This document shows, piece by piece, positions 5,101-39,172 of a stretch of 41,225 bases of DNA (the first letter of the stretch is position 1; each line of letters opens with the position of its first letter). Position numbers and translations under genes: made by a program. Location: contig NW_025214654.1 of NCBI RefSeq assembly GCF_004010195.1, forward strand, positions 1 through 41,225, given 5' to 3'. The notes below the pieces were generated by a model. That model worked only from the letters and a program-made list of their open reading frames with translations, was not told where the DNA came from and ran no database searches. Origin of the DNA: Chiloscyllium plagiosum. Its lineage: Eukaryota.

Positions 5101-5233
5101 ACCATTTCAAAAAGCTCTGCACCAGAAGCCAGACAAAGTGATGCATTCACCCTCTCTTTCTTCCCTATTGTGATAAAATTGGTCGTTTTTGATCCCCAGT
5201 ATTGCTCTCTGCCATTTTAAGTGAGGAAGGAAA

Positions 5234-6070
5234 ATGACTAAGGGAAAAGAACCACGAGAAACACAACCAGCAGCGCACAGCAGCAATGGATACATCCGCC
5301 GCGGTGACGTCAGCCTCTGCCAACGCCCCAGGGGACTTATCTGTGGAGTAGAGCCTGGTCTCGGATTTCAGAGCCTGCGAGAGAAGATTGATTCAGCGAT
5401 GGAGGAGACCCAAACTCGGCTAGAAACTGCAGAAGCAGGACCAGGAGACGATGAGTCCCGGGCCGTGCAGTGTCAAGGTGGAACAGCAGACTGCGGCTTC
5501 GGAAACCATGGCAGAATCCTCGGCGGGTCGGGTCCAAGCCCTGGAGTGGTAGGTTACGGCTTTAATAGAGTAGGTCGACGACCTCGAAAATCGGGGCGGT
5601 CAGAAGAACATCAGCCTGGTCGGGCTGCAGGAACGAGAAGAAGAAGGCTAGCTCTTCAGCTTCTTGGAGCAATGGCTCATACAATATTTGAAGCTGGAAG
5701 TAAGGGCAGACTGGGTGCGCGTCGAGTAGGCCCAGCAGGTCGCAGTGTGCAAGCCTGGATCGGACCAGCGTCCCTACCCGGTCCAAGTGCAATTCCAGCA
5801 CATAGTGAAAAAAAAAGTGCTGTCAGCTTCTCGATCTCTGGGGAAGGATCCATAGGCTCTGATCTACAAAGGATCACGAATAATGTTTTTCGAAGACCTT
5901 TCTACGGCTGTGTCCGCAAGAAGCAGGCCTTTGATAAGGTAAAAAGGAGACTGAGGGATGTGAATAATCTGGTAGGATATCCGACAATCTTATGTTTCAG
6001 CCATGGAAGGTCTGTGTTTAATTTTGACTCACCGGAAAACGCAAAGAACTTCCTGTACACCTTAAAATAG
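5234..6070 (+). pseudogene. L1 ORF1 (RNA-binding protein), frameshifted
   Basis: Across frames: VDDLENRGGQKNISLVGLQEREE...KGSRIMFFEDLS...KKQAFDKVKRRLRD...YPTILCFSHGRSVFNFDSPENAKNFL*, which are typical L1 ORF1 RRM/CTD motifs. Confidence 0.85.
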
Positions 6071-8169
6071 ACTGGCTGGTTCAAATAATATGGACAATTA
6101 TATTCTCTTTGATTTCTCTGGGGTTTGCCTGGTTTACCTCCTTTTTTTAGTATGTGGATGTCCCATTTTTTTCCCTTTTCTCTCTACTCCTTTCTTCCTC
6201 CATTCCCATTATCCTTTGTTTTTCTATCATTTGCTTTTCACTTCTCTCACTTAGCTCGGAATGGGAAAGGGGGATTGGGGGTAGTGGGATTGGTTACATT
6301 TTGTTTCACCAGGACTGCCTCAGATCAAAGTATGGATGGGACGGATTGAATTCCCACTTTTAATTTTCTTGTTGTAAGATGCATACAACTTTTTAAAACT
6401 TTGTTTTGCCTGGGTTTGGGGAGCAGCTTCAGCTAGGAGGACCCATGGGGGATTAATGGGTAATATGAACACCGTCTGCCGGAAGGGGGAAAGTCTCTGT
6501 TATATGTCGGTTCATTGTAGAAATAGTTGTTAGAAGTTTGGTTTGGATGTTATTGTAGTTATATCTTCAAGTTTTTAATAACTGTTTACTGCTTTCACTT
6601 GACGTGCCATAAATGGGGTTCTTCTCCTAATGGGTCATGGGCTGCTTCGGATGGCGATGGTTAACCGCTCGTTTAAATGGTGCACCTGGAGTCACTCACT
6701 GATTAAGAGAAAAACATACTTTCAAGCCTCAGAAAGGAAGGGGTCGATGTAGCCTTGCTACAAGAAGCATATCTAACTGCTAAGGAACACTTAAAGTTAC
6801 AGCAGGGAAGATTCGGCCCGGTGTTTATTTCATCCTTTAATTCCAAAAGTAGAGGAGTAGCTTCACTCATTGATACAAACCTGTCCACTTCAGTTGTTTG
6901 ACCAAATTAAGGAAGATCGTGAGTGGTTTCTGATCCTTAAAGCTTTGATACATGGAGAAGAATATGGGACATTGTATAATATTGTCCCCAGCACCCACCC
7001 TCAAATTTCTAATGGTTGTAATCTCCAGGTGGATGACCATTGGGGAACATCGTACAATTAAAGGGGAGACTTTAACCGACTTATGGACCCTGAAATGGAC
7101 AGGACGTCAAGGGATCTCACGGGTATTTCCCCGGCATCAAGGCAGCTAGTGGACTTGAACAGGGAGCTGCGTTGGTGGACGTTTGAGATGTCTTCACCCT
7201 GAAGGTTGGGATTTCACCTTTTTTCCAACCCACATAAGTGCTATACCAGAATTGACATATTTTTTGCCCCATTGGCCTTTTTAAATTCGATGCTGCTTTG
7301 CAAAATTCTGATCATGCAGCAGTGTACGTGGATGTTAAGGCCGATGGCGATGGGACAGGCTCGCAGCACTGGCACATGGATCCTTGCCTCCTGAAAGATA
7401 GCAAATTCATTGAGCACTTTTCGCGGGAATTTAAGTTTTTATTGGGACATTAACTTGGGTACCGCCAGTAATCCGTCGGTGTTCTGGAAGACTGCCAAGG
7501 CCTATGCAAGGGGTTTGATTATTTCTTACTTGGTGACTCGGAAGCGGCAGAAGGGAAAGCAGTAGCACATGCTTAAGGCTTAGCTAAAGGCAGCTGAGAC
7601 AGCATACTTTGACAGACTGTCTGCAACTAAGTTGCAGGAGAATACAGCCCTCCGGGCTGCTCTGAATACTGCGCTCACCCAGAAAGCAAAGAGGGAGATT
7701 TCCTTTGCGAAACAGAGATTATTCAACTCTGGTGCTAAATTGAGAAGGCGCACTTGGCCAGAAAGAAGAGTGCCCGCATACTACTACATCCATTAGAGAG
7801 GGTGCTTGGATATATTCAATTATTTTTATAGACAGGACTACCTCCCATCCTCTCAGAGAGAAGCAAATATTCCTCTTCTTCTCAAGAGAAGGAAAGCATT
7901 GGAGGATTGCGTATTCGTATAGACCTATGTGGACTTTAAAATTTTGTCGAAAATACTAGCGTTGAGGCTGGAGAAGATATTTTCCTTCATTGTGAAAGAG
8001 GACCAGACAGGTTTTATTAGGAGTTGCAGGTCCTCTATTAATATTATGAGAGTGCTAAATATGGTTCAGGTGTGGCAGCAAGCTCGATTCCAGGCTTGGT
8101 AGTCTCGATGGATGCAGAGAAAGCATTTGATTGGGTGTAGTGGCCATACCTCTTTTATGTCTTGGAACT

Positions 8170-8341
8170 TTTTGAGGAGAAAGTGAGGACTGCAGATGCT
8201 GGCGATCAGAGCTGAAAATGTGTTGCTGGAAAAGTGCAGCAGGTCAGGCACCCTGAAGAAGGGCTTATGCCCGAAACGTCGATTCTCCTTTCCCTGGATG
8301 CTGCCTGACCTGCTGCGCTTTTCCAGGAACACATTTTCAGC
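8170..8341. mobile_element. short Penelope-derived hairpin insertion with 14-bp TSD
   Basis: tatgtcttggaact at 8156-8169 and 8342-8355; inverted arms at 8210-8250 and 8302-8342. Confidence 0.85.
8253..8280 (+). ncRNA. minimal hammerhead-ribozyme-like core
   Basis: CTGAAGA-A-GGGC ttat GCCC-GAAA-CGTC: both conserved core boxes, a 4-bp stem II and a GUC cleavage triplet. Stem I is poorly formed. Confidence 0.6.
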
Positions 8342-9065
8342 TATGTCTTGGAACTGTTTGGCCTTGGAGGTGTTTTTGCCTGGTGGATGGCAGAATTATA
8401 TAGTGACGTTAAAGCAGCAGCAGTTCTCACTAATGGTGTAAGGTCTAATGGTATAATTTTAGCATCGGCAGAGGCAGCCATTATTATTTGCATTGGTGAT
8501 TGAGTCGTTGGCAGAAGCCATCCAGAGCGGTCCCAATATAACTGAATGGGTGGTAGAGTCAGGAAGGCATAACATCATCGTTTACACAGATGATGTTCTT
8601 CTCTCTCTCACTAACCGTATGATATATTTGCCCCGTTTAGTTGAAGTGATTGATTTATTTGAATCTTTCTCGGGGTATAACATCAACTTTATGAAATCGG
8701 ATGCCATGCCTGTTGGGGTGTTATTCGAGTACCTGATCGTGGGGGTGCAATCCGATTCCCTTTCAGATGGTCACAATGAGGTTTCCTCTATTTAGGCATT
8801 TTTATCACACCGGTCTTCTGTCAATTATATAAAGCAAACTTCGTGCAGGTGCTCGAGAAGATAAGACAGGACCTTCCGCTCTGAGAAGATATTCCAATAT
8901 CCTGGTTGGGTAGAATACTTCCGGTTAAAATGAATGTACTTCCTCGTTTCTTCTATCCCATGCGAATAGTACTTTTGATGCTCTCCAGGCCAGTGCTATT
9001 GAGGCTTTACAGTTGGTTAAGCTCGTTTATCTGGCACCACAGGTGGCCTCTTATGAAGCTCACAA

Positions 9066-10325
9066 AATTGCAGCTTCTGCAGGAGATGCGGGGTGTGACT
9101 TTTCTGGGCTTCAACAAATACCAACTAAGTTCCCTGAAATCCTATGTGGCTGATTGAGGTTGCAAAGACCTGCGGTCAGTTTGGCTGGCCATTGAAGCAT
9201 CACAGCCAAAATGCCCCCTCATTAATCTGCTGTTCATGGACAAGATGATGACTGTTATGGACCATCGGAGAAAATCAATTGCCCTTAACATAGTTAAAGC
9301 CTGGAAAATGATGCGACAAAGTGAGGGCAATTTACAAAAATAAACTTCCCCTTTTAGTCCCATTGTAGGATTGGTAGGATCCCAGCTATGACTGATGTAT
9401 TATGGCTTTCGGCTCTGGGAGACGAGAGGAGTTTCCTGTTTGGGAGAATTATTTGACGTGGTGGTCAGGATGGCTTTTGTTTAGCTGAGCCAGAAATATG
9501 AATTATCTTGGAGGGGCCTGTTTCGTTGCTTTCAGATGAGAAATTTTATACAGAAAAAAAGATTACATTAATGGTTAGTCCCTATAAGTCGGAAATGGAG
9601 AGAAGAGTGCTTCGGTCCACATGTGCTCTCTCGGTCAGCAACCTGTATCATTTATTAGGAGATAGAATCTCAAAGGATATAGAGCGGCTCTATGGAATTG
9701 CAGCTTCTGCAGGAGATGCGGGGGGTGAATTTTCTGGGTTTTAACAAATACCAACTAAGTTCCCTGAAATCGTATGTGGCTGATTGAGCTTGCAAAGACA
9801 TGCGGTCAGTTTGGTTGGACATTGAAGCATCCCAGGCAAAATGTCCCCTCATTAATCTGCTGTTCATGGACAAGATGATGACTGTTATGGACCATCGCAG
9901 AAAACCAATTGCCCTTAACATAGTTAAAGCCTGGAAAATGATGCGACAAAGTGAGGGCAATTTACAAAAATAAACTTCCCCTTTTAGTCCCATTGTAGGA
10001 TTGGTAGGATCCCAGCTAGGACTGATGGATTATGGCTTTTGGCTCTGGGAGACCAGAGGAGTTTCCTGTTTGGGAGAATTATTTGACGTGGTGGTTAAGA
10101 TGGCTTTTGATTAGCTGAGCCAGAAATATGAGTTATCTTGGAGGGGCCTGTTTCGTTACTTTCAGATGAGGAATTTTATACAGAAAAAAAAACTACATTA
10201 ATGGTTAGTCCCTATAAGTCGGAAATGGAGAGAAGAGTGTTTCGGTCCACATGTGCTCTCTCGGTCAGCAACCTCTATCATTTATTAGGAGATAAAATCT
10301 CAAAGGATATAGAGTGGCTCTATGG
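9066..10325 (+). repeat. 630-bp tandem duplication inside L1 ORF2
   Basis: 9066-9695 and 9696-10325 align without gaps, with scattered substitutions and AAT microhomology at the junctions. Confidence 0.95.
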
Positions 10326-10829
10326 AATCTGGGCTCAGGAAGTGTGGGTGGATATCTCACCAGAGGAGTGGGAAGATGTTTGGGAGACCGTAAGGAAGAT
10401 TTCAATTTGCAATGGACGTAGGCTATGCAGTTTAAGGTACCCCACAGGGTTTAATTGACACCAGAGCAGCTTGTCAAATTTAAGACAGGAGAGTCACCAA
10501 TGTGCCCCAAATGTACAATAGATATTGGTGCTCTTACTTATTAACTGTGATCATGCCACAAGTTACTTAGGGATTGATGCACTATACCAAGAGTTTGGAA
10601 GGGATTTTGGGAACCGAGGTCAAGGCAACTCTGGTGCCTCTCCTCTTGGGTTCGCTGAACCTTCCCTCTTTAGACTTGCATCGGAAGAAATTGTTTAGTA
10701 TTCTTTCATTTTGTGGGAGGAAGAACATTCTGATGAACTGGGTTCCAGGAAACCTCCCAGGAATCTGATCATGGTGTTATGGAGCTCATGTCCTGGACAT
10801 CCTTACGAGTATGGGCACCAGAAAAAGGA

Positions 10830-11049
10830 GGTGAAAATGTGTTGCTGGAAAAGCGAAGCAGGTCAGGCAGCATCCAAGGAATAGGAGAATCGACGTTTCG
10901 GGCATAAGCCCTTCTGCAGGAAGGCCTGAAGAAGAGCTTATGCCCGAAACGTCGATTCTCCTGTTCCTTGGATGCTGCCTGACCTGCTGCGCTTTTCCAG
11001 CAACACATTTTCAGTTCCGATCTCCAGTATCTGCAGTCCTCACTTTCTC
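10830..11049. mobile_element. short Penelope-derived palindromic insertion with 14-bp TSD
   Basis: caccagaaaaagga at 10816-10829 and 11050-11063; 89-bp arms at 10832-10920 and 10925-11013, each with a hammerhead-like core. Confidence 0.9.
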
Positions 11050-11469
11050 CACCAGAAAAAGGAACATTGTTATAGGACGTAGCGGCCCTATTTCAACCAT
11101 ATGGACATGGTTTTATTGGCTATATTGGTCAGTGCATTTGTGTAATAGTGAGGGTTGTGTCTGGTGGCCCGGGGGTCTCTGAGAGGAATAATTCTGAACA
11201 AATACGGGTATGGCAACTCATGCGACCGGTGATGGGGAGCTTTGGTAAAATTGTGCTGGGTGTTGTAACTTCATGTAATTTAATTTAATTTGCCTTGGTT
11301 CAGCTCGGTTTAATCTATGTTTTGTTTTGATTTTGTTTTGACATCAGCCCATTGATTTTGTGCACAGGGAAGAGAATGAGTCTTTTCAGCCACTCATGCC
11401 TCTTACACAGCAACCAGAGTAGGTCATTTCACACCATGTGTCAATTATACAGGATTGGAGGGAATGAAG

Positions 11470-13260
11470 AGAATATAGAGAGGTGAGAATTCAAGATTAT
11501 CACCTTCATGATGGAATATAACGTAGTGAGAAAACTGATGGAATTTAAGAAAATTGTTAAAATCGATTATTCAGAAATTAAAGAAAGGACATTTACAGAG
11601 CCAAGCCACAATCCATCCGAATCAACATAATTTTACAAAGGATGAATCGTATTTTCCTTATTTATTTGAGTCTTTAAGAACGTAACAAGCAAGCTGCATC
11701 ATGGGGATCCTGGAGATGTAAAATCAGGACTTGCAGAAGACATTGAATAAGGTGTGCACAAAAGATTAATCTGCAGAATAAGATCACATATGGTTAGAAG
11801 TAATTTGTTCGCTTGGATATAGGATTGGTGAAGCAAAGAATTGCAGTGAGATGGAAAAACTGGTTCATTTTCTGTTTCCGAAAAATACCATAGGGCTCAG
11901 TCCCCAGGCCCCAACTAATAGCAATCAATACTATCACTTATTTGAGGGGATGGACATGCTATAATCAGTTTTTCAGAATACACTGACTCAGGTGAGAAAG
12001 TGTAATGAATTTTTATGGATAGGTTGGGCCATTATTTGTCAGATGAAATGAAACAATGAAAAGTATGCGGCCGTTTTTGTCGGTGTAACAGAAGAGCAAC
12101 TTACTATCCAAACAGAGGGAAACTCCAGAGTTTTAAGGTACAGAGGGATCTGGTATCCTCATCCATATCGCAAAAAACACAGATGCAGGTATAGCAGATA
12201 ATGAGAAAGGCAACTGCAAATTTGGCATTTATTTCTGAAAGAATAGATTATAAAGCAAGGGAGGTGTTGCTGCAATAATGCCAGGCATTGTGAGATCGCA
12301 ATTGAGTACTGTGTACAGTTTTGGTATCCTGACTGCAGGAGGGATGTAATTACCATGGAGGCAGTTCAGAAGAGGTTTACTAGACTGATTCCAGAGATAA
12401 GGAGTTTGTCCTCTGAAGAGAGATTGAGCACTTCAGGTCTATACTCTCTGGAGTTTAGAAAAATGGGAGGAGATGTCACTGAGGTCTGGACAATGCTAAC
12501 GGTGATTGATAATGTCGATATGTATTGGGTATTTCCTCATGGGGGCAATCTAAACAAGAGATAATAGTTTTAGGATAAGTGGAGCAGAATTAAAACAGTG
12601 ATGAGAGAACTTCTCTCAAAGGATTGTAAATCTGTGTAATTCACTGTTCCAGAGTGGAGTGGATGCTGGGTTATTGAGTAACTGACGGGATATGGAGAGT
12701 GGGCCGGAAAGTGGGACTGAGACCGAGATGACATCAGCCTTGAGTGTATTCAATGGTGGAGCAGGCTGACATCACATATGATTGTATTCAATGGTGGAGC
12801 AGGCTGGAGGGGCTGGATTGCTGACTGATGTTCCTCGTCCTTATTCAGCCCTTCGAATGGGGGAACACAGGAATGGGGAAAGGCTGGTTATTAAACAGAA
12901 AGCAGGCACTCCAGATAAATCAGTTATAATCAGTTTTAAAGAATGTAACCAGTAGGGTCACACAATGACCAGTGCAGGGTCTTCAACTATTTACCATCTA
13001 TATCAATGATCTAGAGAAGTGGAACAAATGTACTGTAACTAAGTTTGCCAATGGAACTAAGATAAGCAGGAAAATAAATAATCAATGGAAGTTGTAGAGT
13101 CTGTAAATGGATATGGACAAGTTAATCAATGGATAAAAGTTTGGCAGGCGGGATTTAACGTCATATATAACCTGTCATTTTCTTCCAGGAAGAACGGCAA
13201 GCAGTATGTTACTGAAATACAGAGGGATTACAGGACTTAGTGATACCGTGTGTATTGGAG
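11470..13260 (+). mobile_element. two old CR1 fragments in tandem (block W)
   Basis: MEAVQKRFTRLIPEIRSLSSEERLSTSGLYSLEFRKMGGD, CR1 3' UTR to about 12840, then a second RT fragment. There is a 38-bp local duplication at 12729-12804. Confidence 0.85.
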
Positions 13261-13329
13261 GGCTCACTCTGAGCCGTTCAGACACGGCAAGTGTTTCTCC
13301 ATCACCCTGATCGTTTGCTGCCTGATGTT

Positions 13330-14080
13330 CTCAGCGGGCCTATTGCTCTCATCCACCATATATATCCTCCGTCACTGAATGATGACACTGATGTTGAGAT
13401 CGGAGAGATAATGGAGCCATCACCCACTCCTGCCTGGAAAGTTCAGGAACATAGAAGCTGAATGAAACTGTGACCATAAAGGCCACTGATAGCACCGCCC
13501 TCCCCCTGGTGTGAAGCTGCAGGTCGTGTTGAAGGAGGTGACACCGCTCTGTGACCAGCTGCTTGTTCAATCAGTGTCCCCTCAAACTCTGCTCCTGGGT
13601 TAAGTGGAGCTTGGGAAGCTGTTCCTGGAAAACCTGAGGTGGATCCAGCAGATCCCTTTCTCCAGACATACGCACCGCGTGGTTTCAGAGCTTCCCCTCT
13701 CTGCAGCCTCTGCTCCATTTGTTGTTCATGTTACAGACCTAGATGCTGTAACTACAGTCCACATGCTCCATCCAGAGTTGGGTCACCAAGTCACAGGTCT
13801 CCCTGAATGCCTGAGGCATCTCACAGCACAGCCTCCCGAAAACCATTCCCAGCACTTCCACTAACTTTCCAATAACAGGAGTCGGTCAGAAGCCCCTCAG
13901 TTACACGTTTGATGCCTGGTAATTAACAATAATACTCGAGGGGCTTCCTCGTGTAACTGACCGCATGATCAGCTGAGAGGGGCAAACACAGATGTTCAGT
14001 GAACAGGCACAGGACCAGGTTCAAAGACGTGTCTCAAAGCTGCTGGGACCCCCTGTCCACCATGGATCACCACATGGGAC
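13330..14080 (-). mobile_element. Harbinger transposase remnant (copy B)
   Basis: PPQVFQEQLPKLHLTQEQSLR...KQLVTERCHLLQHDLQLHTRGRAVLSVAFMVTVSFSFY resembles the HARBI1-type N-terminal HTH region. Confidence 0.75.
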
Positions 14081-17129: not shown

Positions 17130-18390
17130 TATTGATGACTGGGTATCTGTGTGTGTGTGCATCTGTGTATCGGTATTTGTTTTTGTGCGCCTGTATTAGT
17201 ATATGTGCTATTGCATCAGTCTCCGTGTGTGGCTATGCATCTATATTCATTTCTGTGTGTCTCTGCATGTCTGATTTTGTCTCTGTGTGTAAAAGTGTTT
17301 CTGCATTTATCGCTGTGCTTATCTGCATGTCTGTATTTGTCTCTGTGCATATCTGCGTGCCTGTATTTGTGTCTGTGTGCATCTGCATGTCTGTATTCGT
17401 CACTGTGTGTATCTGACTGTCTGTATTCACCTCTGTGTGTATCTGCGTGTCTGTATACATCTCTCTGTATATCTACGTGTCTCTATTCGTCTCTGTGTGT
17501 ATCTGCGTATCACTGTGTGTATCAGCGCGTCTGTTTTTGTCTCTGTGTATATCGGTTTATCTGTGTTCAACTCTGTGTGTATACGTGTATCTGTATTCGT
17601 CTCTGTTGGTATCTGTGTGACTTTAATCGTCTCTGTGTGTAACTGTGTGTCAATATTTTCCATTCTGTGTATCTGCGTGTCTATATTTGTCTTTCTGTGT
17701 ATCTGTCTGTCTGTATTCGTCTCTGTGTGCATCTGAATGTCTGCATTCATCTCTGAATCTGCGTGTCTGTATTCATCTGCGTGTCTGTATTCGTCTCTAT
17801 GTGTTTCCGTGTGCCTGTATTCATCTCTGTATCTGCGTGTCTGTATTCGTCTCTATGTGTTTCCGTGTGCCTGTATTCATCTCTGTATCTGCGTGTCTGT
17901 ATTCGTCTCTATGTGTTTCCGTGTGCCTGTATTCATCTCTGTATCTGCGTGTCTGTATTCGTCTCTATGTGTTTCCGTGTGCCTGTATTCATCTCTGTAT
18001 CTGCGTGTCTGTATTCGTCTCTATGTGTTTCCGTGTGCCTGTATTCATCTCTGTATCTGCGTGTCTGTATTCGTCTCTATGTGTTTCCGTGTGCCTGTAT
18101 TCATCTCTGTATCTGCGTGTCTGTATTCGTCTCTATGTGTATCTGTGTGCCTGTATTCATCTCCGTTGTGTATCTGCCTGTCTGTATTTGTCTCTGTGTA
18201 TATCTGTGTGCCTGTATTTGTTTATGTGTGTCGCTGCACGTCGGTATTCGTCTCTCTGTGCGCCTGTGCATCTGTATTCATCTCTGTGTGTCTGTATTTG
18301 TCTCTTTGTGTATTTGCGTGTCTGTTTTCATCTCTGCATTTTGTCTGCGTGACTGTATTCATCTCTGTGTGTATCTGTGTGTCCATGTGC
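17130..18390. repeat. TG-rich minisatellite (about 30-bp unit) with a homogeneous 56-bp higher-order core
   Basis: Six identical 56-mers start at 17779, 17835, 17891, 17947, 18003 and 18059. Confidence 0.95.
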
Positions 18391-21250: not shown

Positions 21251-22669
21251 GCGAGAGCACTTCAGGGTTGAGAAGGAGAGACGTTCGTATTGAACTGTGT
21301 AAGACATTGAGGAGAGTGTATCTGGTGCATAGCCTATGGACATTTTCTCTGGTATGGGAGTCTAGAACTGAGGATTCAAATTTAAGAAAACAACGGTATA
21401 TGTTATATATTCTTTTCATAGTATAAGAAAACAAATACTATGAAGACATGATTTGCTTGGACAAAAATATGAGGACACATACAAATGTATCTTCATTAAA
21501 ACTCCTACATGGAGTAGAGAATAGGGACAGAATCATACAGTTCCGAGAATGTTCAAGGAGGCCTCACGTGGTTCAGTTTGGTTTTCAGATAACATTATTG
21601 TATATTTCTGCTCAGAGATGGAGAAAATGCAACATGTTGGAGAAGCCACTGCTTATTGCTCCCTCTCTTTCCTTGTTCCTGCTCGCAGCAATGTATGAGA
21701 GGTGAAAACTGTTCAGTCAAATTATCATTCATGTAGGATTACTGTTGAGGAATCATTGGCATCTCCCTACTGCCTAAATTCAAAGGTATTTCAGCCAATC
21801 CGACTGTTCCAGGAATAAATCCTGCTTGTCTGAGCAGAACAACTTCAGAGGCAGAATAACATTTAATTATTTTGCTTTTGTCTTGAGTTTAACTATTGCT
21901 TGGACAAAGCTCTTTCAAGCTGATATTTTGCAGCTTTTTTTTCCTGCTTGTATTTAGGTATGTGTATGTGTGTGTCTGTGTGCACTTGCGTGTGTGAGAT
22001 ACTGTGTATGTCTTAGTATGTGTGTCTGTGTGTATGCTCAGACTGCATCTCAGTATGCGTTCAAAGATAAATATTAATGTAAATATTTGTCCAAACTGTT
22101 TGCACTTTATTTTTCCATCTTAGCTTTGAGTAACTTTGCTTTGGTGAATTATTTTTGCAAATGTAAGATATCGAGCTGACTTGTCCCCAGCAAAGAACCT
22201 GACCTAGTCTGAGACCTATATCATTGGTCATATCACCAACCGGGTCACATTTAAAAGTTATCATGATCAATGGAGGAACGGGACTAGAAAATGAAACAGT
22301 GGTCTGTCCAACCCCAGTCTGAACACAGATGAGGAGAATTTCACAAAGGGTTGTTTGAGTGGGAATGCTCTTCCCCAGAAGTTTGTGGTGCCTGTGTGTT
22401 TTCATTTAGTCAAAGCATTTAGATATTGGACAGTAAAGGCCAATGAACTACAGATATGGAAGTGGGGCTGAGAACACATGCAGATAAACCACGATCTTAC
22501 TGCCTAGTTGAGAGGGCTTAAAGTGTCTAATGACATACTCCTACCCCTCAGTCCTACGTTCCTATGTTCCATTCAGTTCCTAAAAACTGCAAGACAGGAG
22601 CACTTGGAGTTCATTTATTCCGATAACCTGGTGCACAGAAACAGAGGAGACCATTCACTGACTGAAGAC

Positions 22670-22765
22670 TCGGGAGTGTAACGCTGTAAAAGCACAGCAG
22701 GTCAGGCAGCATCCGAGGAGCAGAAGAATCGCCGTTTCTGAGCATAAGCTTCTGCCCGAAACTTG
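22670..22765. mobile_element. truncated Penelope-derived terminal repeat
   Basis: aaaagcacagcaggtcaggcagcatccgaggagcag...gcccgaaac is the same family as the 8170 and 10830 insertions. Confidence 0.75.
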
Positions 22766-23049
22766 GTTTCAACAGAATACAAGGACGCTATTCAATCCAT
22801 TGAAACTATTGGATAAGAATAGGGATAGCCCATTCAGACCCTTCTGCCTATTACATAAGGAGGGAAGGAGTGTAGCCAGCACATCGAGATGTTAAACAGG
22901 AACCGGATTCGCCAAGTCAGGTCCTTGAGCAGCTTCCAGATGACCAGGACGTAGCCATTCAGCCTATCAAACCACATATACAGAAATAGGAAGATGTTTT
23001 TGATGCCCCAACATGACAAAGAGTGAAGCAGAGTCTACACAGATAGACT

Positions 23050-25930: not shown

Positions 25931-26174
25931 GCTACAGCATAACAAGAGTTACAATTACAATGCCACTGCAGTGATGAAAGTATGGTTAAAACAAAGGAAA
26001 TCAGTTCGAAGCAGACAGGAGCATTAGTTACAAAAAGACTGTTTTCTAGATCCTGCATTGAGAATGTTGCGATAAGCTTGTGAGTAAACAGACAACAAGG
26101 AATGCATAAAAAGCACAATAAAATCTGTTGCTGATAAGGTCTCAACGTGCAACTATATAGCCAATACATATGAA

Positions 26175-26720
26175 GCTGAAAAAGCAAAGCAAGTGAGACA
26201 GCATCCTAGGAAGAGGAAAGTCAACGTTTCAGGCTGAAACACTTTATCAGGATTGGGGTGGGAAAGGGGAGCCGGGAAGTAAATAGAGGGAGGGCCGTGG
26301 GGCTGGTGGAAGAGTAGGCGATGGGGGATGCAGGCAGGGAATTATTGTGATTGGTCAGTGGGAAGGGTGCAACAGATATACGAATGGGAAGATGGACAGC
26401 TTTGGTCAGGTCAGGGAAGGGGACATGGGTAAGACTGTGGGTAGAGAAATTTGAAGCCAGTGAAATCAATATTGAGACCATTGAGCTGTAAGGTCTCCAG
26501 CTGAAATATCAAGTTGTGTTCCCCAGTTTCTGTTTGGCTTCACTCTGAAAGTGGTGGAGCCCAAAGATGGACCTGTTGCTGGATGAGCAAGGGGAGGGGA
26601 GTGATTGAAATGGATGGCAACTGGAATGCTGAGTTTGTTAAAGCGTGCAGAGAGCATATGCTCCATGAATATGTCCCTGAGTCTCCCTTTCGTCTCCACA
26701 ACATAGAGGAGACCACATTG
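26175..26720 (-). mobile_element. Penelope-like element 3' end (GIY-YIG endonuclease tail)
   Basis: LYVMETKGRLRDIFMEHMLSARFNKLSIPVAIHFN resembles YVGETKRRLGDRFAEH...PVAxHFN; it ends in the terminal repeat with a decayed CTGATAA...GAAACGTT core. Confidence 0.8.
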
Positions 26721-26739
26721 GGAGTTGGAGACGAGCTCG

Positions 26740-27230
26740 GTGGGCCAGGATCAGGCTCTGTGTGGAGTATTAGTGCTCTGCACGAAACAACTAACCCGAC
26801 TTTCCAGTTACCATTCATTTTAATTTCCACTCCCACTCGCCCGGCGACATGCCCATCCTTAGCTTGTCCACCGTTAGAGGAACACCACCTGAGAGTTTAC
26901 CTTTGAAGCTGATAGCCCAATGACCTGAATATTGACTGAAGCCACTTCAAAAGCCCTCACCCACAGCCTTATCCCATGTCCCTTTTCACTGACCAGACAC
27001 ACATGTATCTGCTCCATCCTTCCCACTGACCAATCACAGTAACCTCATACCTGCATGTGCCTACCACCATCATACCTACCCGCCACCCTTCCATATCCCA
27101 TCACTCCATTTCTGGGCTCCCCTGGTCCTCATCAAACCTGACGAAACGTCCAAGATCAAAATAGTGTGTTTGCTGCTCCTCTGATTCTGCTGGTCTGCTG
27201 TGTTTATCCAGCTCCAAGTTTATTAACTCT
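26740..27230 (+). mobile_element. Penelope-like element 3' end, inverted partner
   Basis: PDFPVTIHFNFHSHSPGDMPILS...LEEHHL...PNDLNID, then a pyrimidine-rich UTR and terminal repeat. Confidence 0.7.
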
Positions 27231-27399
27231 GGCCTCCCTCACCTATAGTACTTCCTCTCTCCAAGCTGTGGAGCTAGGTGGTCTAGATATAAGAAGAAAT
27301 AAATTTGGACATTTGAAAAGATCGCGGACACATTCGTTATGTCATAACAACCCAATACACACCTTCTAGATGAAGCAGCATTTAATTTGTACTCTTTCA

Positions 27400-28900
27400 A
27401 TCCAGTCTCCTGTCATTGCTGCTCACAATGCAGTCTCCTTTACATTGGGGAGATCAAACAGAAACTGTTTTGAGGAAAACTCCCACTCTGTCTGTGGGAA
27501 TAACCCTGACCTTCTCATTGTTTCCCATTTCAATAAAGTACCTTCCTGTCATGCTAACATTTCAGTCCTGAGCTGCTGTAATGCTCCAATGAAGCACAAC
27601 TCAGCCTCGAGTAACACCTCACTTTAGACCTTGGTACGTTCTGTCCTGAAGTAGTTTTTTATTCAATTCCATACTTCCACCGCCTGACCACATTATGGCT
27701 GTTCTCCATTCTTCACACATTCTTTCTCCTGGTCTCCCAATAGAACATAGAACATAGAACATAGTTTGTCTTGCACTTAATTAAGGAACCCACTTCCCCC
27801 CTTCACAATCTAATTAATACTCATTTTACATTTGATTCTGTTTTACCAGAAATAAAAGTCAATTTGTCAATGGCATTGCTCCTCCACACCATCTTGTTTC
27901 CCGTCACCCCTCCTCTACCTCGGTCAAGGGAGTTAAAAGCCCATTTTCCAATCCTTTCCTGTTCTGAAGAGGAGTCACACTGGACTTGAAATGCTAACTG
28001 TGTTTCTCTCTCTCCGCAGATGCTGCCAGATCTGCTGTGTTTCTCCAGAAATGAAAAAAAAGCACATTTTCAATTAAACAAATAACTCTGGATATCCGGA
28101 ACTCAATTCCTCTACCAATAAAAGCCAGTACGCCATATGCCTTCTTCACTGCACTATTTACCTGGGTGGCAACTTTCAGAGATCTGTGTACATGGACACC
28201 AAGATCCCTCTGCTCATCCACACTACCAAGTATCCGACCATTAGCCCAGTACCCCATCTTTTTGTTATTCTTCCCAAAGTGAATCACCTCACACTTAGCT
28301 ACATTGCATTCCATTTGCCACCTTTCTGCCCAGCTCTGCAGCTTTTCTATATCCTGCTGTAACCTGCCACATCCTTCCTCACTGTCAACAACTTCTCCGA
28401 CTTTCGTATCATCCGCAAACTTTCTCACCCAACCTTCTAACCCCTCTTCCAGGTCATTTATAAAAATGACAAACAGCAATGGTCCCAAAACAGATCCTTG
28501 TGGAACACCGCTAGTGACGGCACTCCATGAAGAAACTTTGCCATGATCTTGCCCTGTTTGTGAATCGTTTGTCTTGCACTTAATTAAGGAACCCATTCTC
28601 ACCCCCTTCACAATTTAATTAATACTCATTTTACATTTGATTCTGTTTTACCAGAAATAAAAGTCAATTTGTCAGTGGCATTGCTCCTCCACACGATCTT
28701 GTTTCCCATCACCCATCCTCTACCTCGGTCAAGGGAGTTAAAAGCCCATTTTCCAATCCATTTCTGTTCTGAAGAGGAGTCACACTGGACTTGAAATGCT
28801 AACTGTGTTTCTCTCTCTCCGCAGATGCTGCTAGATCTGCTGTGTTTCTCCAGAAATGAAAAAAAAGCAGATTTTCAATTAAACAAATAATTTTGGATAC
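27400..28900 (+). mobile_element. third Penelope-like 3' fragment, disrupted by a CR1 insertion and duplication
   Basis: ctttacattggg-agatcaaac (LYIGE.K), PDLLIVSHFN; terminal CTGAAGA-G-GAGTC..GACTT-GAAA at 27964 and 28769. Confidence 0.7.
28095..28543 (-). mobile_element. young CR1 RT fragment, open frame
   Basis: VTSGVPQGSVLGPLLFVIFINDL...KFADDTK...QRDLGVHVHRSLK with no stops; detached (CTATGTT)n tail at 27740-27764. Confidence 0.95.
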
Positions 28901-31789: not shown

Positions 31790-33555
31790 TTATCCTTGTG
31801 AATCACCTCTCTCTCAGCCTTCTCTGCTCCAAAGTAAACAACCCGAGCTTATCCAGCCTCTCTCCATAGCTGATATGCTCCATCCCAGGGAGCATCCTGG
31901 TGAATCTCCTCTGTACCCCTCCACTACAATCACATCCTTCCTGCAATATGGCTCCCAGAACTACGCACAGTGTTCCAACATGGCCTAACCATTGACTTGT
32001 ATAGCTCTGACAATCTATACGTCGGTGAATGAAGGCTCTGCCTACGGTTCACTCTGCCTTATTAACTAATGTATTAACCTCAGTCAAAAAGTATATTGCT
32101 GGAAAAGCACAGCAGATCAGCCAACATCCGAGAGGCAGGAAAGTCGACTTTTTGAGAATATGCTTCACATCAGGAATGTGGCCACCAATCCTGATAAAAA
32201 CCTTATGATCAAAACATCGACTCTCCTACTCCTTGCATGCTGCTTGACTGACTGTGCTTTACAAGAACTACACTTCTTGATTCTGATCTCAAACATCTGC
32301 AGTCCTCATTTCTTTCCCCTAACCTATTACCCTGTGCCGTCACATTCAGGGATCTGTGGAGGAACACCCTCTCAGCTTCTTAGTGTGTTGCAATTCATTG
32401 TATACCCCCATTTTTGTTTCCTTCTTCCAAAGTGCATTACCACATGTTTATCGGGGTTACATTCAAGCTGACTATCTGACCATTCCATCTGTATCTTTCT
32501 GTAACATAAGGCCTTCCTCCTCACTGCCAACCACCCCGCCAATATTTGTGTCAAATACAAACTTAATTAGCACACTCCCTCACACCACCCCCACCCCGCT
32601 AACACATTCACATTTATGAATACCACAAATAATAAGATACACTGCACTGATCCCTGTGGTACATCAGGGAACATCGGTCTCCAGTCACACAAACAGCCTT
32701 CCTCCACCATCCTCAGTCTCCTGCGAATAAGATAATGTTTGATGTAACTCACTAAGCTACCCTGACTTCTTTTTTTATCAGTTTCACATATGGGGCTTGT
32801 CAAAGGTCTTGCTGAAAAACCAAAAGAACAACATGCTCGGAAACAGGCAATAACATTCACTTGGAATGACTTCCCTCCTATGATGTCATGCTGACTCCCC
32901 CTGGTCAAACCTTGCCTCTGCAAATAGAGAAAACCTTGCCTCTGCAAATAGAGATAAATTTTCTCCTTTCTTATTTTCTCCAGTACTTGCCCGAACACGG
33001 ATCTAAAACTGACTGGTTAACAGTCAGTCTATTTACACCATCCTTCCTGTAAAGTGGGACCATATTCGTTGTTCTCCAGTCATCTGGCAACTCCAACTTC
33101 CCTGTGGTCAGATTTGACTTAAACATTTGAGTCTCTAACAGCAGCCTGTACTTCAACTTATCCAGACCTGGCAATCAGTCCAATTTTATACCAGCCAAGG
33201 CCTCCAATCCCTGCTCCCATCTTATATCAGTCTGTTCAAGAGCTTCCCAATCCATCTTCTTGAATTCTGTCCCTGCATCCTCCCTCTCCAAGTAAAATAG
33301 ATATGGAACTCTCATGTAACGATCGATCAATGTTCTCCAGCTTCGCACACAGAGTGCTCCCTTGGTCTCTAATGGGCCCTAGTTGTGTCCTGGTTATTCT
33401 GTTCCGATTGATATACGTGGACAACATCTTGGGATTCTCCCTAACCTTGCCTGGGAACACTTCTCCATGCCCCTGTGTCAGTCCGTCTCTCTGTGTGAAT
33501 TTTCTAAGCTTCACTGCGATCTCATTTCATTTTTGGCAATCACTGGAGAACACAA
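31790..33555 (-). mobile_element. CR1 LINE, antisense, with nested hairpin repeat
   Basis: LPDDWRTTNMVPLYRK, DVPQGSV, CNPDKHVVMHFGR; 24-bp duplication at 32907-32954. Confidence 0.85.
32085..32320. mobile_element. older, diverged copy of the Penelope-derived palindrome
   Basis: ttgctggaaaagcacagcag...catcagg / cctgata...catctgcagtcctca shows the same layout as 10830-11049. Confidence 0.75.
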
Positions 33556-35749: not shown

Positions 35750-37460
35750 AAAGTTAGGAATTAGGATAATCAGCTTCACTTGTCACTAAAAGGTTGTGAG
35801 TAAACTGTTGGGAATTAAGGGAAATTGTGAGAATCCGTTATTAATTAATTAACAACAGGGGATTTACAAAGTAAAACCTGAATACATCAGAATCAGCATG
35901 ATTTTTTTAAGAATTTGTTGGCTCGAATTTTTAAAGATGTTACAAGCAAAGTAGACCATAGGGATCCTGGAAAAGTAAAGTTCCCGGACTTTGAAAATGC
36001 GTTGATTAAACGCTGCACAAAATATTAAGCTGTAAACTAAGAGGACATGGGTTTGGGAGAAGGCTATTCACCTGGATAGAGGGCTGGTGAGCCAATAAAA
36101 TGCAGAGAGATGGAATAGTTGTTTCGTTAGTGTTTGGCAACTTCTGGAGTTCCATAGAGTTCAGACCACATGACCCGACAATTTACCATACATTGTATTA
36201 CTTGGATGAGAGGAGAGAAAACACGACAGCCACATTTTCAGTTGATACTAAAACAAGTGAAAAAGTAGGTTGATGTAATGAAGATGTAGAAAAACTACAA
36301 ATGGACATGAAAAGTTTAGATGAATGTGCCAACATCTGGCAGCTAAAATGTAACATGGATAATATGGGATTAAACATTTTGATCAGAGGAATTCAACATG
36401 TTATGGAAATGGAGAGCAACTTCAGAGTGCTTTCGTGCAGAGACATGTAGGTGCGCATGTACATACCACAGAAAACTCACATGCAGGTACAGCAGGGAAT
36501 GAGAAAGGCAAGTGCAATTGCAGCATTTACTTGTAAAAGAATAGAGTATAAAAGGAGGGAAGAAATACTGCAACTCTGCAAGGTATTAGTGAGAGGGAAA
36601 CTGACGTACTGTGTTCAGGGTTTATTGTCCTGACTGCAGGAGTGACATTGGTTCAACGAAGGCAGTTCAGAACGAGGACATTAGATTGATTCCAGAGATG
36701 AATTTGTCATTTGAAGCGAGTTTGAGCAGTTCAGGCCGATGCTCTCTGGGTTTAGAAGAATGAGAGGAGACCTCATTGAAGTCTGGAGGATGTTAAAGGT
36801 GATTGACAATGTCGGTATTGAGGGGACATTTCCTCATGTGGGGCAAACTAGAACAAGAGATCATAGTTTTAGGATTAGACCGAGCATATTTTAAACGGGC
36901 TGAAGAGATTTTACTTCTTTCAATGGGTTGTGACTCTGTGTAATTCATTGCCCTAGTGTTCAGGGGATGCTGGGACATTGAGTAAATGAATGGATATGGA
37001 GAGCAGGCAGGGAAATGGAACTGAGCCGGCGATGACATCAGTCATGATTGTATTCAATGGTGGAACAGGCTTGAGGGACTGGATTGTTCCTCTTTCTTAT
37101 TCAACCCTTCGACTGTGCTTCAAAGGAACGGGGAAGGACTGGTTTTCTATCAGGAAGCAGGCACTCCGGATAAATCAGTCTTAATAAGTTTGATAGAACG
37201 TAAGCAGTGGAGTCACACAGGGACCAGTGCTGCGTCCTCAACTCTTTACAATCGATGTCAATGATCAGGACGATAGAATAGATGTATACTACTAAGTATG
37301 GTGATGACACTAAGGTAAGCAAGACATTAAATTATCAACAGAATGATATCAACAGAATACTTTATCAAGTGGAATATAACGGAATGTACAACCTGCCAGC
37401 TTTTTCAGGAAGAATGAAAGGCAGTATGTTACTGAAATGGAGAGGGATTACACGTCATAG
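35750..37460 (+). mobile_element. two old CR1 fragments in tandem (block W', paralog of 11470-13260)
   Basis: Same CR1/CR1 junction: ttattcaacccttcga...agcaggcactccggataaatcagt versus 12841-12925. Confidence 0.85.
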
Positions 37461-37589
37461 TCATACAGTGTGTTCTGGGGAATTCACTATAACCCATTCA
37501 GATATGGGACATGTGGCTCCATCTCCCTGATGGTCTGCTCCTTGACATTCCCAGTGGTCCTATTGCTCTCAGTACACACAGGTTATTTC

Positions 37590-38510
37590 GATGTGGTTGG
37601 TTGGCAGTGGGGAATGGTGAGGGGGTGGGTGTTTTGAGGCGTGTATCAAGGGGACAGCCTTTAGCCAAGAGGATATACTTTCTTTCCGAATGAAGACCAA
37701 TGACGATTGGAATGGCTGACTGCTTCTGAATGAAGAAGCGGTGGCTGCTGCCAGTACAGTGAGTATTCACCAACACGATATACTGTGCATGGGCGCACTG
37801 TAACATTAATGGGGTGAGAGTTCCTTCAATTCCTCGAGCTCTCTTCATTAACATGGGAACCCCACAGAGCCATGTACATCATTGGGAATCCTGCTATACG
37901 GAGATTACACGGACAAACCCTGCAGTTCTCTGCTGAGAGAGAAAACCTTCACCTCATCCACCACATATATCCTACTTTTCCGAATCTTGATATTGATGGC
38001 GACATACTGGAAGATGATGGATATGTCACCTAGTCCTGCCTGGACAGTTCCAGAACATAGAAGCTGAATGAAATAGTGACCCCAACAGCCACTGGCAGCA
38101 TCGCCCTTTCCCAATGTGAAGCTGCAGATTGTGTTGAAGGAGGTGACACCGCTCTGTGACCAACTCCTTGTTCAGTCAGGGACCCCTCACAATCTGCTCC
38201 TGGGTTAAGTGTAGCTTGGGAAGCTGTTCCTGGAAATCTCGGGGTGGATACCGCAGATCCCTTTCCCCACATAAAAAACTGCGTGGTTTCAGAGCTTCCC
38301 TTCTCTGCAGCCTTTGCTCCATTTGTTGTTCATGTTACACACCCAGATGTTGTAACTACAGTCCCCATGCTCCATCCAGAATTGGGTCACCAAATCCTCA
38401 GGTCTCCCTGAATCGGAGGCAACTAACAGCACAACCTCCAGCAAACCATCCCCAGTCCCTCCACTAACTTTTCAATAGCAGTGGACAGTCAGAGGCCCCT
38501 CAGCTACAAG
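37590..38510 (-). mobile_element. Harbinger transposase remnant (copy C, most complete)
   Basis: MLPVAVGVTISFSFY / SGTVQAGLGDIS; VLVNTHCTGSSHRFFIQKQSAIP...ILLAKGCPLDTRLKTP resembles HARBI1-type VNARYPGSxHDAFIL...LLGDKGYPL..WLMTP. Confidence 0.8.
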
Positions 38511-39172
38511 TGTTATAGACCAGACCAGACCCCGTCAAAATATTTTAAGCAGGCAGCCTCGACCTTAACTTTTTCTTATTTTAAATGTAGATGTGAACTG
38601 TATGTTCCAGATGTGTAGCAACTGGTCAACCCACTCAACGTTAAGCAAAATGTAATCCATTCAAACGCTGTAGTTAAAATACAATCAAAGAGAAGAACAG
38701 TTTGTGATACCTTCTCTACAGGAACACCTATGCAAACAACAGATATGGTGCCTTCTACTAATTAACTGAGCGAATACGGGAACATCCCATAAACACCCCC
38801 CCCCCCTCCCCCGGCAAAACGGTAAATTCAGACACAAAATCTTGTGTGCAGTTCTTCAATCCAGGAGGAAGCAACTTTAAGAGAGTTTTCAGAGAGAATA
38901 GCAGCAAGGTATCATGTATTGACACTTCCAACCTTTCTGTGACACCAAACAGCTTCTGAATGCTGCAGTTCAAATCAAAACGAGAAGACCTGGTCTGTGA
39001 GAGCTCGGCGCTGTCCTTCCATTGTTCCCACCTTTTTAATAAAACCTAAAAGCCTTCTCAGTTATGTACTTAAGCTGTTTTCAGGCGGCAATTCGGCATC
39101 TCTTCCTTTAAGACCTAATTTCGTAAAAAAAAAAGAGAAAATAACCTTTTTTAAAATGACAGTATCGTCACA
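38511..39172 (-). repeat. 3' LTR (662 bp, TG...CA)
   Basis: Termini tgtta... and ...tcaca. The first 58 nt match 41168-41225 at 38/58 positions without gaps. Confidence 0.75.

Follow-up and report, generated by a model that had tools for sequence, protein, structure and literature searches.

The 41,225 nucleotides of Chiloscyllium plagiosum DNA analysed here, hereafter the window, contain at 10816-11063 a short insert, A, whose two halves mirror each other and each carry a hammerhead-like core, which raises the question of how such a structure was built. Our answer is that A is a truncated landing product of a Penelope-like element (PLE), in which two ribozyme-bearing ends are joined back to back. 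With a probability of about 80%, we judge from its sequence and from analogy to related elements that A is the one-step integration product of an endonuclease-positive (EN+) Penelope/Poseidon-type retroelement in a cartilaginous-fish genome. Taken alone, A matters little, being a dead stump with a published architecture, and its value lies in the record that it keeps of the mechanism.

Anatomy of the insert and its hammerhead cores

Insert A spans about 220 bp and has no ORF. With the element numbered so that unit 1 corresponds to window position 10925, the layout reads as a duplication, an inverted arm (unit 91 to about -1), a direct arm (unit 1-125) and the second duplication copy (Table 1). 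As the preliminary description had stated, two 89-nt arms (10832-10920 and 10925-11013) enclose a 4-nt loop and the 14-bp flanking duplication is exact. The arms are complementary at 85/89 positions (95.5% identity), with mismatches at 10856, 10882, 10910 and 10916. An alignment of the ends showed that the final 2 nt of the left duplication also match the element at the untailed priming site, and positions 10921-10922 agree with the upstream family consensus obtained from loose ends in public sequencing runs. Loose ends in those runs also bunch at both edges of the 35-nt tail.

Table 1. Positions of insert A, its relatives and its host within the window.
Feature	Position	Strand	Remarks
Host of A and B: old, broken L1-type LINE (presumed)	5225-11160 (limits approximate)	+
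Sister insertion B (8170 element)	8156-8360		orientation opposite to A
B, tailed arm	8175-8250	-	unit 52-127
B, untailed arm	8252-8341	+	unit 1-91
A, left target-site duplication	10816-10829	+	14 bp, exact repeat of 11050-11063
A, inverted, untailed PLE end	10830-10922	-	unit about -1 to 91; 95.5% identical to plus arm over 89 nt
A, minimal hammerhead core	10892-10919	-	A6 -> C; helix II intact
A, inversion junction / 4-nt loop	10921-10924		AAGG; no clear microhomology
A, direct PLE end (pLTR 3' part)	10925-11014	+	5'-truncated at first base before hammerhead core
A, minimal type I hammerhead core	10926-10953	+	one helix II mismatch; helix I 5' strand absent
A, PLE 'tail', 35 nt, one end only	11015-11049	+	from arm alignment; no mirror in other arm
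A, right target-site duplication	11050-11063	+	first base also fits tail
Copy D: untailed minus arm	22663-22770		plus arm reduced to 24 nt
Copy E: 1.1-kb head-to-head version	26155-27260		tail on plus arm only; junction near 26760
Older copy C: untailed minus arm + tailed plus arm	32066-32333		duplication decayed, 12/15

The sequence of A is predicted to fold as a single hairpin of -169.6 kcal/mol (z = -22.9; 0/200 shuffles as low), which agrees with the earlier expectation that read-through RNA would form a long hairpin. Such a very stable fold, together with an Rfam match to mir-680 at 35 bits, could point to a hairpin RNA gene selected by the host, either a miRNA-like precursor or an editing substrate. 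However, the match lies far under the 104-bit gathering score, which led us to reject a mir-680 precursor, private changes in the arms break pairs (4/89), and the location is a broken L1, all of which make a host gene of this kind scarcely credible. The high copy number of the family implies many 90-bp perfect hairpins in shark genomes, which would be candidate substrates for editing or silencing if transcribed.

The hammerhead-like cores previously noted on both strands are indeed there, each with a defect. The core on the plus strand is complete, and its helix II contains one A.C mismatch, at position 10935, which is private to A; about 97% of the family depth in public runs has G there. The minus core reads CUGCAGA. 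Both arms of A, like B, retain the core, the extra base, helix II and GAAAC-GUC, and neither A core has the 5' strand of helix I. An active ribozyme would combine an intact core, three helices and free folding, a combination that the A cores lack, and the predicted hairpin buries both cores in any read-through transcript. Judged from sequence and predicted fold, both hammerheads look dead or unlikely to work, and A, with its crippled ribozymes and no reading frame, is an inert copy. Rfam returned no hammerhead match in the window up to an E of 5, which is unsurprising for minimal motifs that are truncated. No pile-up of RNA ends was listed at the cleavage site (10953/10954) in the one RNA run, and a joint that lands on 10954 was discounted as a sign of cleavage, as the letters there resemble the start of the tail. 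The front edge of the hammerhead, where the arms stop, precedes the cut site by 29 nt. The poorly agreeing consensus (0.36) of the loose ends before 10925 may pair with conserved positions at unit 45-49 to form a distal helix I.

Link to endonuclease-positive Penelope-like elements

The family assignment of A draws on copies E and F, which carry upstream of the terminus a C-terminal GIY-YIG with a CCHH motif that is absent from A. In copy E, the endonuclease remnant starts from 26732 in the minus arm and from 26762 in the plus arm and is followed by UTR and pLTR, and this pLTR is 77% identical to the A unit over 77 nt. A further GIY-YIG remnant lies at 27348-27567. The minus arm of E matched chondrichthyan PLE proteins (tblastn E 1e-11 to 1e-14), and a HMMER search with a GIY-YIG-like piece of E returned 13 proteins at E <=0.001 among 1.84 billion, of which 4/6 checked have shark or ray source labels. 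When an alignment of six such proteins served as query, 161 matches were obtained in 7999 candidates scored, including P0015 and P0056, which are RT + GIY-YIG proteins. P0020 (source label Stegostoma tigrinum) is a shark RT + GIY-YIG protein that runs through the 3' UTR, and its end peptide agrees with the hammerhead frame of B at 7/9 residues; the match is not significant by score (7th of 40 short matches listed) and counts because of its position. The GIY-YIG remnants and the position of the P0020 peptide therefore indicate that the terminus belongs to an EN+ PLE lineage of cartilaginous fish. At the protein level and in other species, P0015 combines RT with GIY-YIG, and P0020 reads on into the hammerhead-frame peptide.

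No intact element or RT remnant with the exact A terminus was found in the window or in viral and metagenome contigs. Pattern scans of these contigs gave 0 matches, and the intact PLE protein P0056 yielded 88 candidate stretches in metagenome contigs, 0 of which were confirmed. Word-based protein searches that used individual fragments of broken GIY-YIG returned nothing, and Pfam also missed those pieces. A itself displays PLE insertion traits, namely a minimal type I hammerhead, a one-sided tail in the 30-40 bp range and an inverted 5'-truncated copy, and the target duplications of the window vary in length as those of PLEs do (14; 14 exact or 18/19; 12/15).

The window also contains a second PLE family, at 27327-28090 and 28602-28899, with a GIY-YIG remnant, UTR and, at 27964, a hammerhead with a longer helix II. 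A CR1-like RT fragment is flanked by two copies (96%) of at least the last 298 nt of this family.

Sister copies, target sites and the origin of the inversion

A and B lie in an old, broken LINE, which we take to be L1-type from its endonuclease and RT motifs (RVT_1 match at 8463-8795, E 7e-4, under the Pfam cutoff, with endonuclease- and RT-like peptides as well). Excising B together with one copy of its duplication produced an unbroken L1 RT frame, which indicates that B is a true insertion; around A the host frame is already broken, and the same check says nothing there. Two young insertions of one subfamily thus sit 2.7 kb apart (8156 and 10816) inside the same old L1, and they have arms in common, in inverted orientation (90% over 82 nt). 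The host L1 also features a direct repeat of 300 nt (9066-9365 / 9696-9995, 95%, spacing 630 nt), which suggests a local tandem duplication. Elsewhere in the window, a degenerate 30-nt tandem array (17133-18340) encloses a recent, near-perfect 56-nt array (17775-18166), and two copies of a composite repeat, matching at 77-92% in blocks, lie at 12300-13910 and 36620-38520, separated by about 24.3-24.6 kb; part of a third copy is found near 780-1010.

Comparison of the copies revealed what is constant and what varies. As previously described, the longer terminal arm is on opposite sides in the two young insertions, the extra 35 nt lying right in A and left at the 8170 element, and arm alignment confirmed that their inversion points differ. 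The arms of B are separated by a single extra C, and each holds sequence that the other lacks (unit 92-127 vs 1-51). Related copies that had been reported near 22670 and 32085 were found at 22663-22770 (D) and 32088-32313 (C). Both arms of C begin ~7 nt upstream of the hammerhead core, and the two arms of D meet within helix II, where they share a self-complementary 4-mer (22747-22750). In copy E, both arms comprise a GIY-YIG remnant, a pyrimidine-rich 3' UTR and a pLTR, and are merely 61% alike; E is an older subfamily and may be the product of two events. Exactly one tail per insert was present in 4/4 window copies with both ends surviving (A, B, C, E).

The family was also traced in four public runs, three DNA-type contig runs and one RNA run, with a single A arm and its right flank as query; the best share of words was 0.31, with no RNA run among those listed by shared words, and the runs may come from another species than the window. 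Matching contigs amounted to 50,785 of 18.8 million, 60,202 of 19.4 million and 59,467 of 25.2 million in the three DNA-type runs, and no sequence spanning A into its flank was found in the runs. Loose ends before 10925 were present in 576-760 contigs per DNA-type run, with conserved last letters and an overall agreement of 0.36, and at loose ends behind 11006-11014 the consensus continues to the untailed end and then disperses. Among the joints listed (15 of 57), seven switch strand, and four of these are distinct 5'-5' joints: 10927/11019 (3/3 DNA-type runs), 10932/10978, 10936/11008 and 10941/10991. Their 5'-5' geometry is fixed because the listed side lengths exceed the sequence left of the first position. 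In joint 10927/11019, an arm that consists of tail alone (32 letters from 11019) meets one whose first position is 10927, and a form with non-overlapping arms is also present among the joints. Tandem duplicated tails (11047-11054 back to 11019-11028) rank with the deepest joints in each of the three contig runs. Opposite-strand 3'-3' joints (11007/11050, 11007/11051 and 11011/11048) link an untailed-type end to a tailed end, as in whole palindromic units side by side or in re-insertion at an element end.

The RNA run is a single-cell poly(A) library, poorly suited to mapping RNA starts. Matches were found in 2,930 of its 13.0 million records, in both orientations and with about 2/100 of the run covered; the listing showed no accumulation of starts or ends, and no record fell on the unique flank. 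A>G and T>C places numbered 17 and 29 in this run vs 6-8 and 16-22 in the DNA-type runs. However, A>T, C>A, T>A and G>C were also elevated, and strand asymmetries appeared in non-editing classes, which led us to dismiss the excess as evidence of RNA editing.

The inversion junction differs in 5/5 window copies examined, and the four 5'-5' joints among those listed add further positions. This variation, across window copies and related genomes, indicates that the inversion is made at each insertion, as the preliminary description had proposed. It also argues against a DNA MITE or fold-back transposon moving as a fixed palindrome, which the short, non-coding sequence, long inverted repeats and many copies might otherwise bring to mind. 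The ends of A are not mutual inverted repeats, as the 35-nt tail stands on one side outside the palindrome, no single fixed structure recurs among the five copies, the duplications measure 14-19 bp, and the terminus is tied to GIY-YIG. We rejected this explanation, which has next to no likelihood.

We also evaluated the target duplications, for which a fixed cut stagger of about 14 nt had been suggested. An exact flanking repeat of at least 14 occurred in 25/3000 random window position pairs, a rate that is probably inflated by real repeats, and the end-anchored score of the A duplication was matched by 10/1500 random pairs. At B, the exact 14 bp previously reported are present, and the match extends to 18/19 (8156-8174 / 8342-8360) by four more bp after one mismatch, which makes 14 doubtful as the length of this duplication. 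The tail of B ends flush with the 19-mer, and the sequence that follows the tail in other family members (loose ends behind 11050, run X21) differs from the extra five of B, which suggests from the sequence comparison that the B duplication is probably 19 bp long. The duplication of copy C (12/15) has p = 0.03 (45/1500 random pairs), and none was found for D or E (p = 0.45 for E). Lengths of 14, probably 19 and about 15 do not support a fixed stagger. Even two 14-bp duplications would be weak evidence for one, because L1 duplications peak at 14-16 bp (PMC2912911) and PLE target duplications are described as variable in length (PMC8557442).

How, then, did the mirrored arm arise? Self-priming of one strand, by which a cDNA folds back on itself with no second target-primed cDNA, was proposed for rotifer Penelopes from palindromic junctions (PMC3846280), and it would suit the near symmetry of A, C and D and the short palindromes at the C and D junctions. 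However, fold-back of one cDNA cannot make B, because each arm of B holds sequence missing from the other, and the tail-only joint 10927/11019 in all three DNA-type runs also speaks against it. In A, the untailed arm extends upstream by 2-4 nt beyond its supposed template, the tailed arm, which is a weak point in the same direction, and palindromic junctions arise unaided when both arms halt at the same base. We consider fold-back improbable for these copies.

A second question is whether A derives from a non-autonomous element, a short unit headed by the hammerhead whose own RNA starts at the front edge and which a PLE protein mobilises in trans, with the palindrome still formed during insertion. 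Three young arms start at most 4 nt from unit 1, those of copy C lie about 7 nt away at most, and the low-agreement consensus before 10925 looks as if most copies begin nearby. However, stalling of RT at the structured hammerhead explains this clustering equally well, and in copies E and F the same kind of terminus continues into UTR and GIY-YIG. Copy D begins within helix II, neither tandem units nor an internal promoter were seen, and the RNA run, within the limits of a poly(A) single-cell library, listed no accumulation of RNA starts or ends. Such a unit is therefore a rather doubtful source of A, and the arm stops at the front edge may reflect either RT stalling or an RNA start.

For one-step integration by an EN+ PLE, which we favour, the following course is consistent with the window copies. 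An RT-GIY-YIG protein would nick both target strands, 14 nt apart at A, as suggested by two-strand nicking by another PLE in vitro. One 3' end would prime at an outer start site and give the tailed arm, and the other would prime at an inner start site, ~35 nt upstream, and give the untailed arm. Both cDNAs would halt early, at A on the hammerhead front edge; made in one event, they would presumably be joined 3' to 3', and fill-in would leave a duplication, the inverted untailed arm, the direct tailed arm and the second duplication copy. At the insert ends, 1-2 bases fit both target and element, as short-pairing priming would give. The absence of microhomology at the A junction counts against this explanation.

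A twin-priming-like origin had been suggested for the inversion, and priming from both target strands is the part that we retain; the simple L1 type does not apply, as the arms copy the same stretch. Arms produced by L1 twin priming overlap little. The template stretch was copied twice over 89 nt at A and about 40 nt at B, and there is no poly(A), and an L1-type twin-priming inversion was rejected. Because A and B copy a stretch twice, either a second RNA or strand displacement is needed. One tentative possibility is that PLE inversions are programmed twin priming on one RNA, in which a protein dimer would place the two strands at the inner and outer sites. The inner RT would run to the 5' limit of the template at the hammerhead front edge, and the outer RT would have to displace the first cDNA and would stop between the inner site and the same limit. 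Priming of this kind would give each insert exactly one tail, and the tailed arm would never extend further 5' than the untailed arm. The tailed arm is not the further-reaching one in B and E clearly and in A marginally, and C is tied. Among the four 5'-5' joints, the later-starting arm is tailed in three, with one undecidable and none against, the tail status of the partner arm being invisible; as two of these three joints are detectable only that way round, the unbiased count is 3/3 (p about 1/8). This possibly new pattern favours one RNA with displacement and, given the small counts, serves as a lead. Published work still describes the way in which PLEs acquire inverted termini as undefined (PMC8557442, PMC11167929), and small inserts that preserve two ends, the junction and an unambiguous duplication can separate fold-back from priming on two RNAs or on one. 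If priming on one RNA is true, an open step of the PLE cycle becomes countable in shark genomes, which hold tens of thousands of such stumps.

Comparison with known systems

The preliminary description regarded the locus as the most system-like signal of the window, which overstated its novelty, as the architecture is the published insertion signature of PLEs. An inverted truncated copy with a one-sided tail is reported as typical of PLEs (PMC8557442, PMC3846280, PMC2377424). As described in these papers, canonical EN+ elements share with A the head-to-head copy, the one-sided tail of 30-40 bp and the duplication, and with the window copies the variable inverted part and the palindromes at some junctions. 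The one or two 34-bp repeats of D. virilis Penelope resemble the tail dimers among the public-run joints. A differs from the canonical elements in being a miniature without an ORF and in that the 5' ends bunch at the hammerhead front edge; the window duplications measure 14-19 bp vs 8-10 bp in the rotifer PLE examples. In the literature covered, with subscription papers, Repbase/Dfam and supplements outside the scope, we found nothing on the shark family of A or on a two-primer model of PLE inversion.

Opposite-strand pairs of minimal hammerheads 100-700 bp apart have been reported, along with many solo motifs from truncated PLEs (PMC4209133). The hammerheads of that report resemble those of A in the type I core, the extra base before helix II, G10.1-C11.1 and the palindromic minimal helix III; those of A differ in a helix II of 4 bp and in cores merely 6 nt apart, and the available text of the paper never names 'shark'. 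Non-LTR retrozymes, reported in one chondrichthyan (10.64898/2026.07.22.740005), are likewise small, non-coding and PLE-derived with a type I hammerhead. However, they are described as head-to-tail tandems with complete hammerheads, whereas A is head-to-head, truncated and mutated, and A was rejected as a retrozyme because it has no complete head-to-tail units.

A process comparable to the course proposed here is that of the Anolis carolinensis Poseidon element in vitro, for which nicking and extension of both strands and two RT start sites bounding the tail were reported, with a protein predicted to be a dimer and no requirement for hammerhead cleavage (PMC11167929). That report and our RNA run are alike in showing no RNA ends at the hammerhead cut site. 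In the accessible part of the report, inverted insertions are not derived from these activities and duplication lengths are not given, and the preferred Poseidon target is AT-rich with ATT whereas the window sites are merely mildly AT-rich. L1 twin priming (PMC2912911) also resembles A in that both target ends prime and two cDNAs are joined, and it differs in that the window copies have no poly(A), the inner priming site is fixed rather than set by chance homology and the same stretch is usually copied twice. Taken together, the architecture of A is already known, as the inverted copy, the one-sided tail, the opposite-strand hammerheads and two-strand, two-site priming have all been published.
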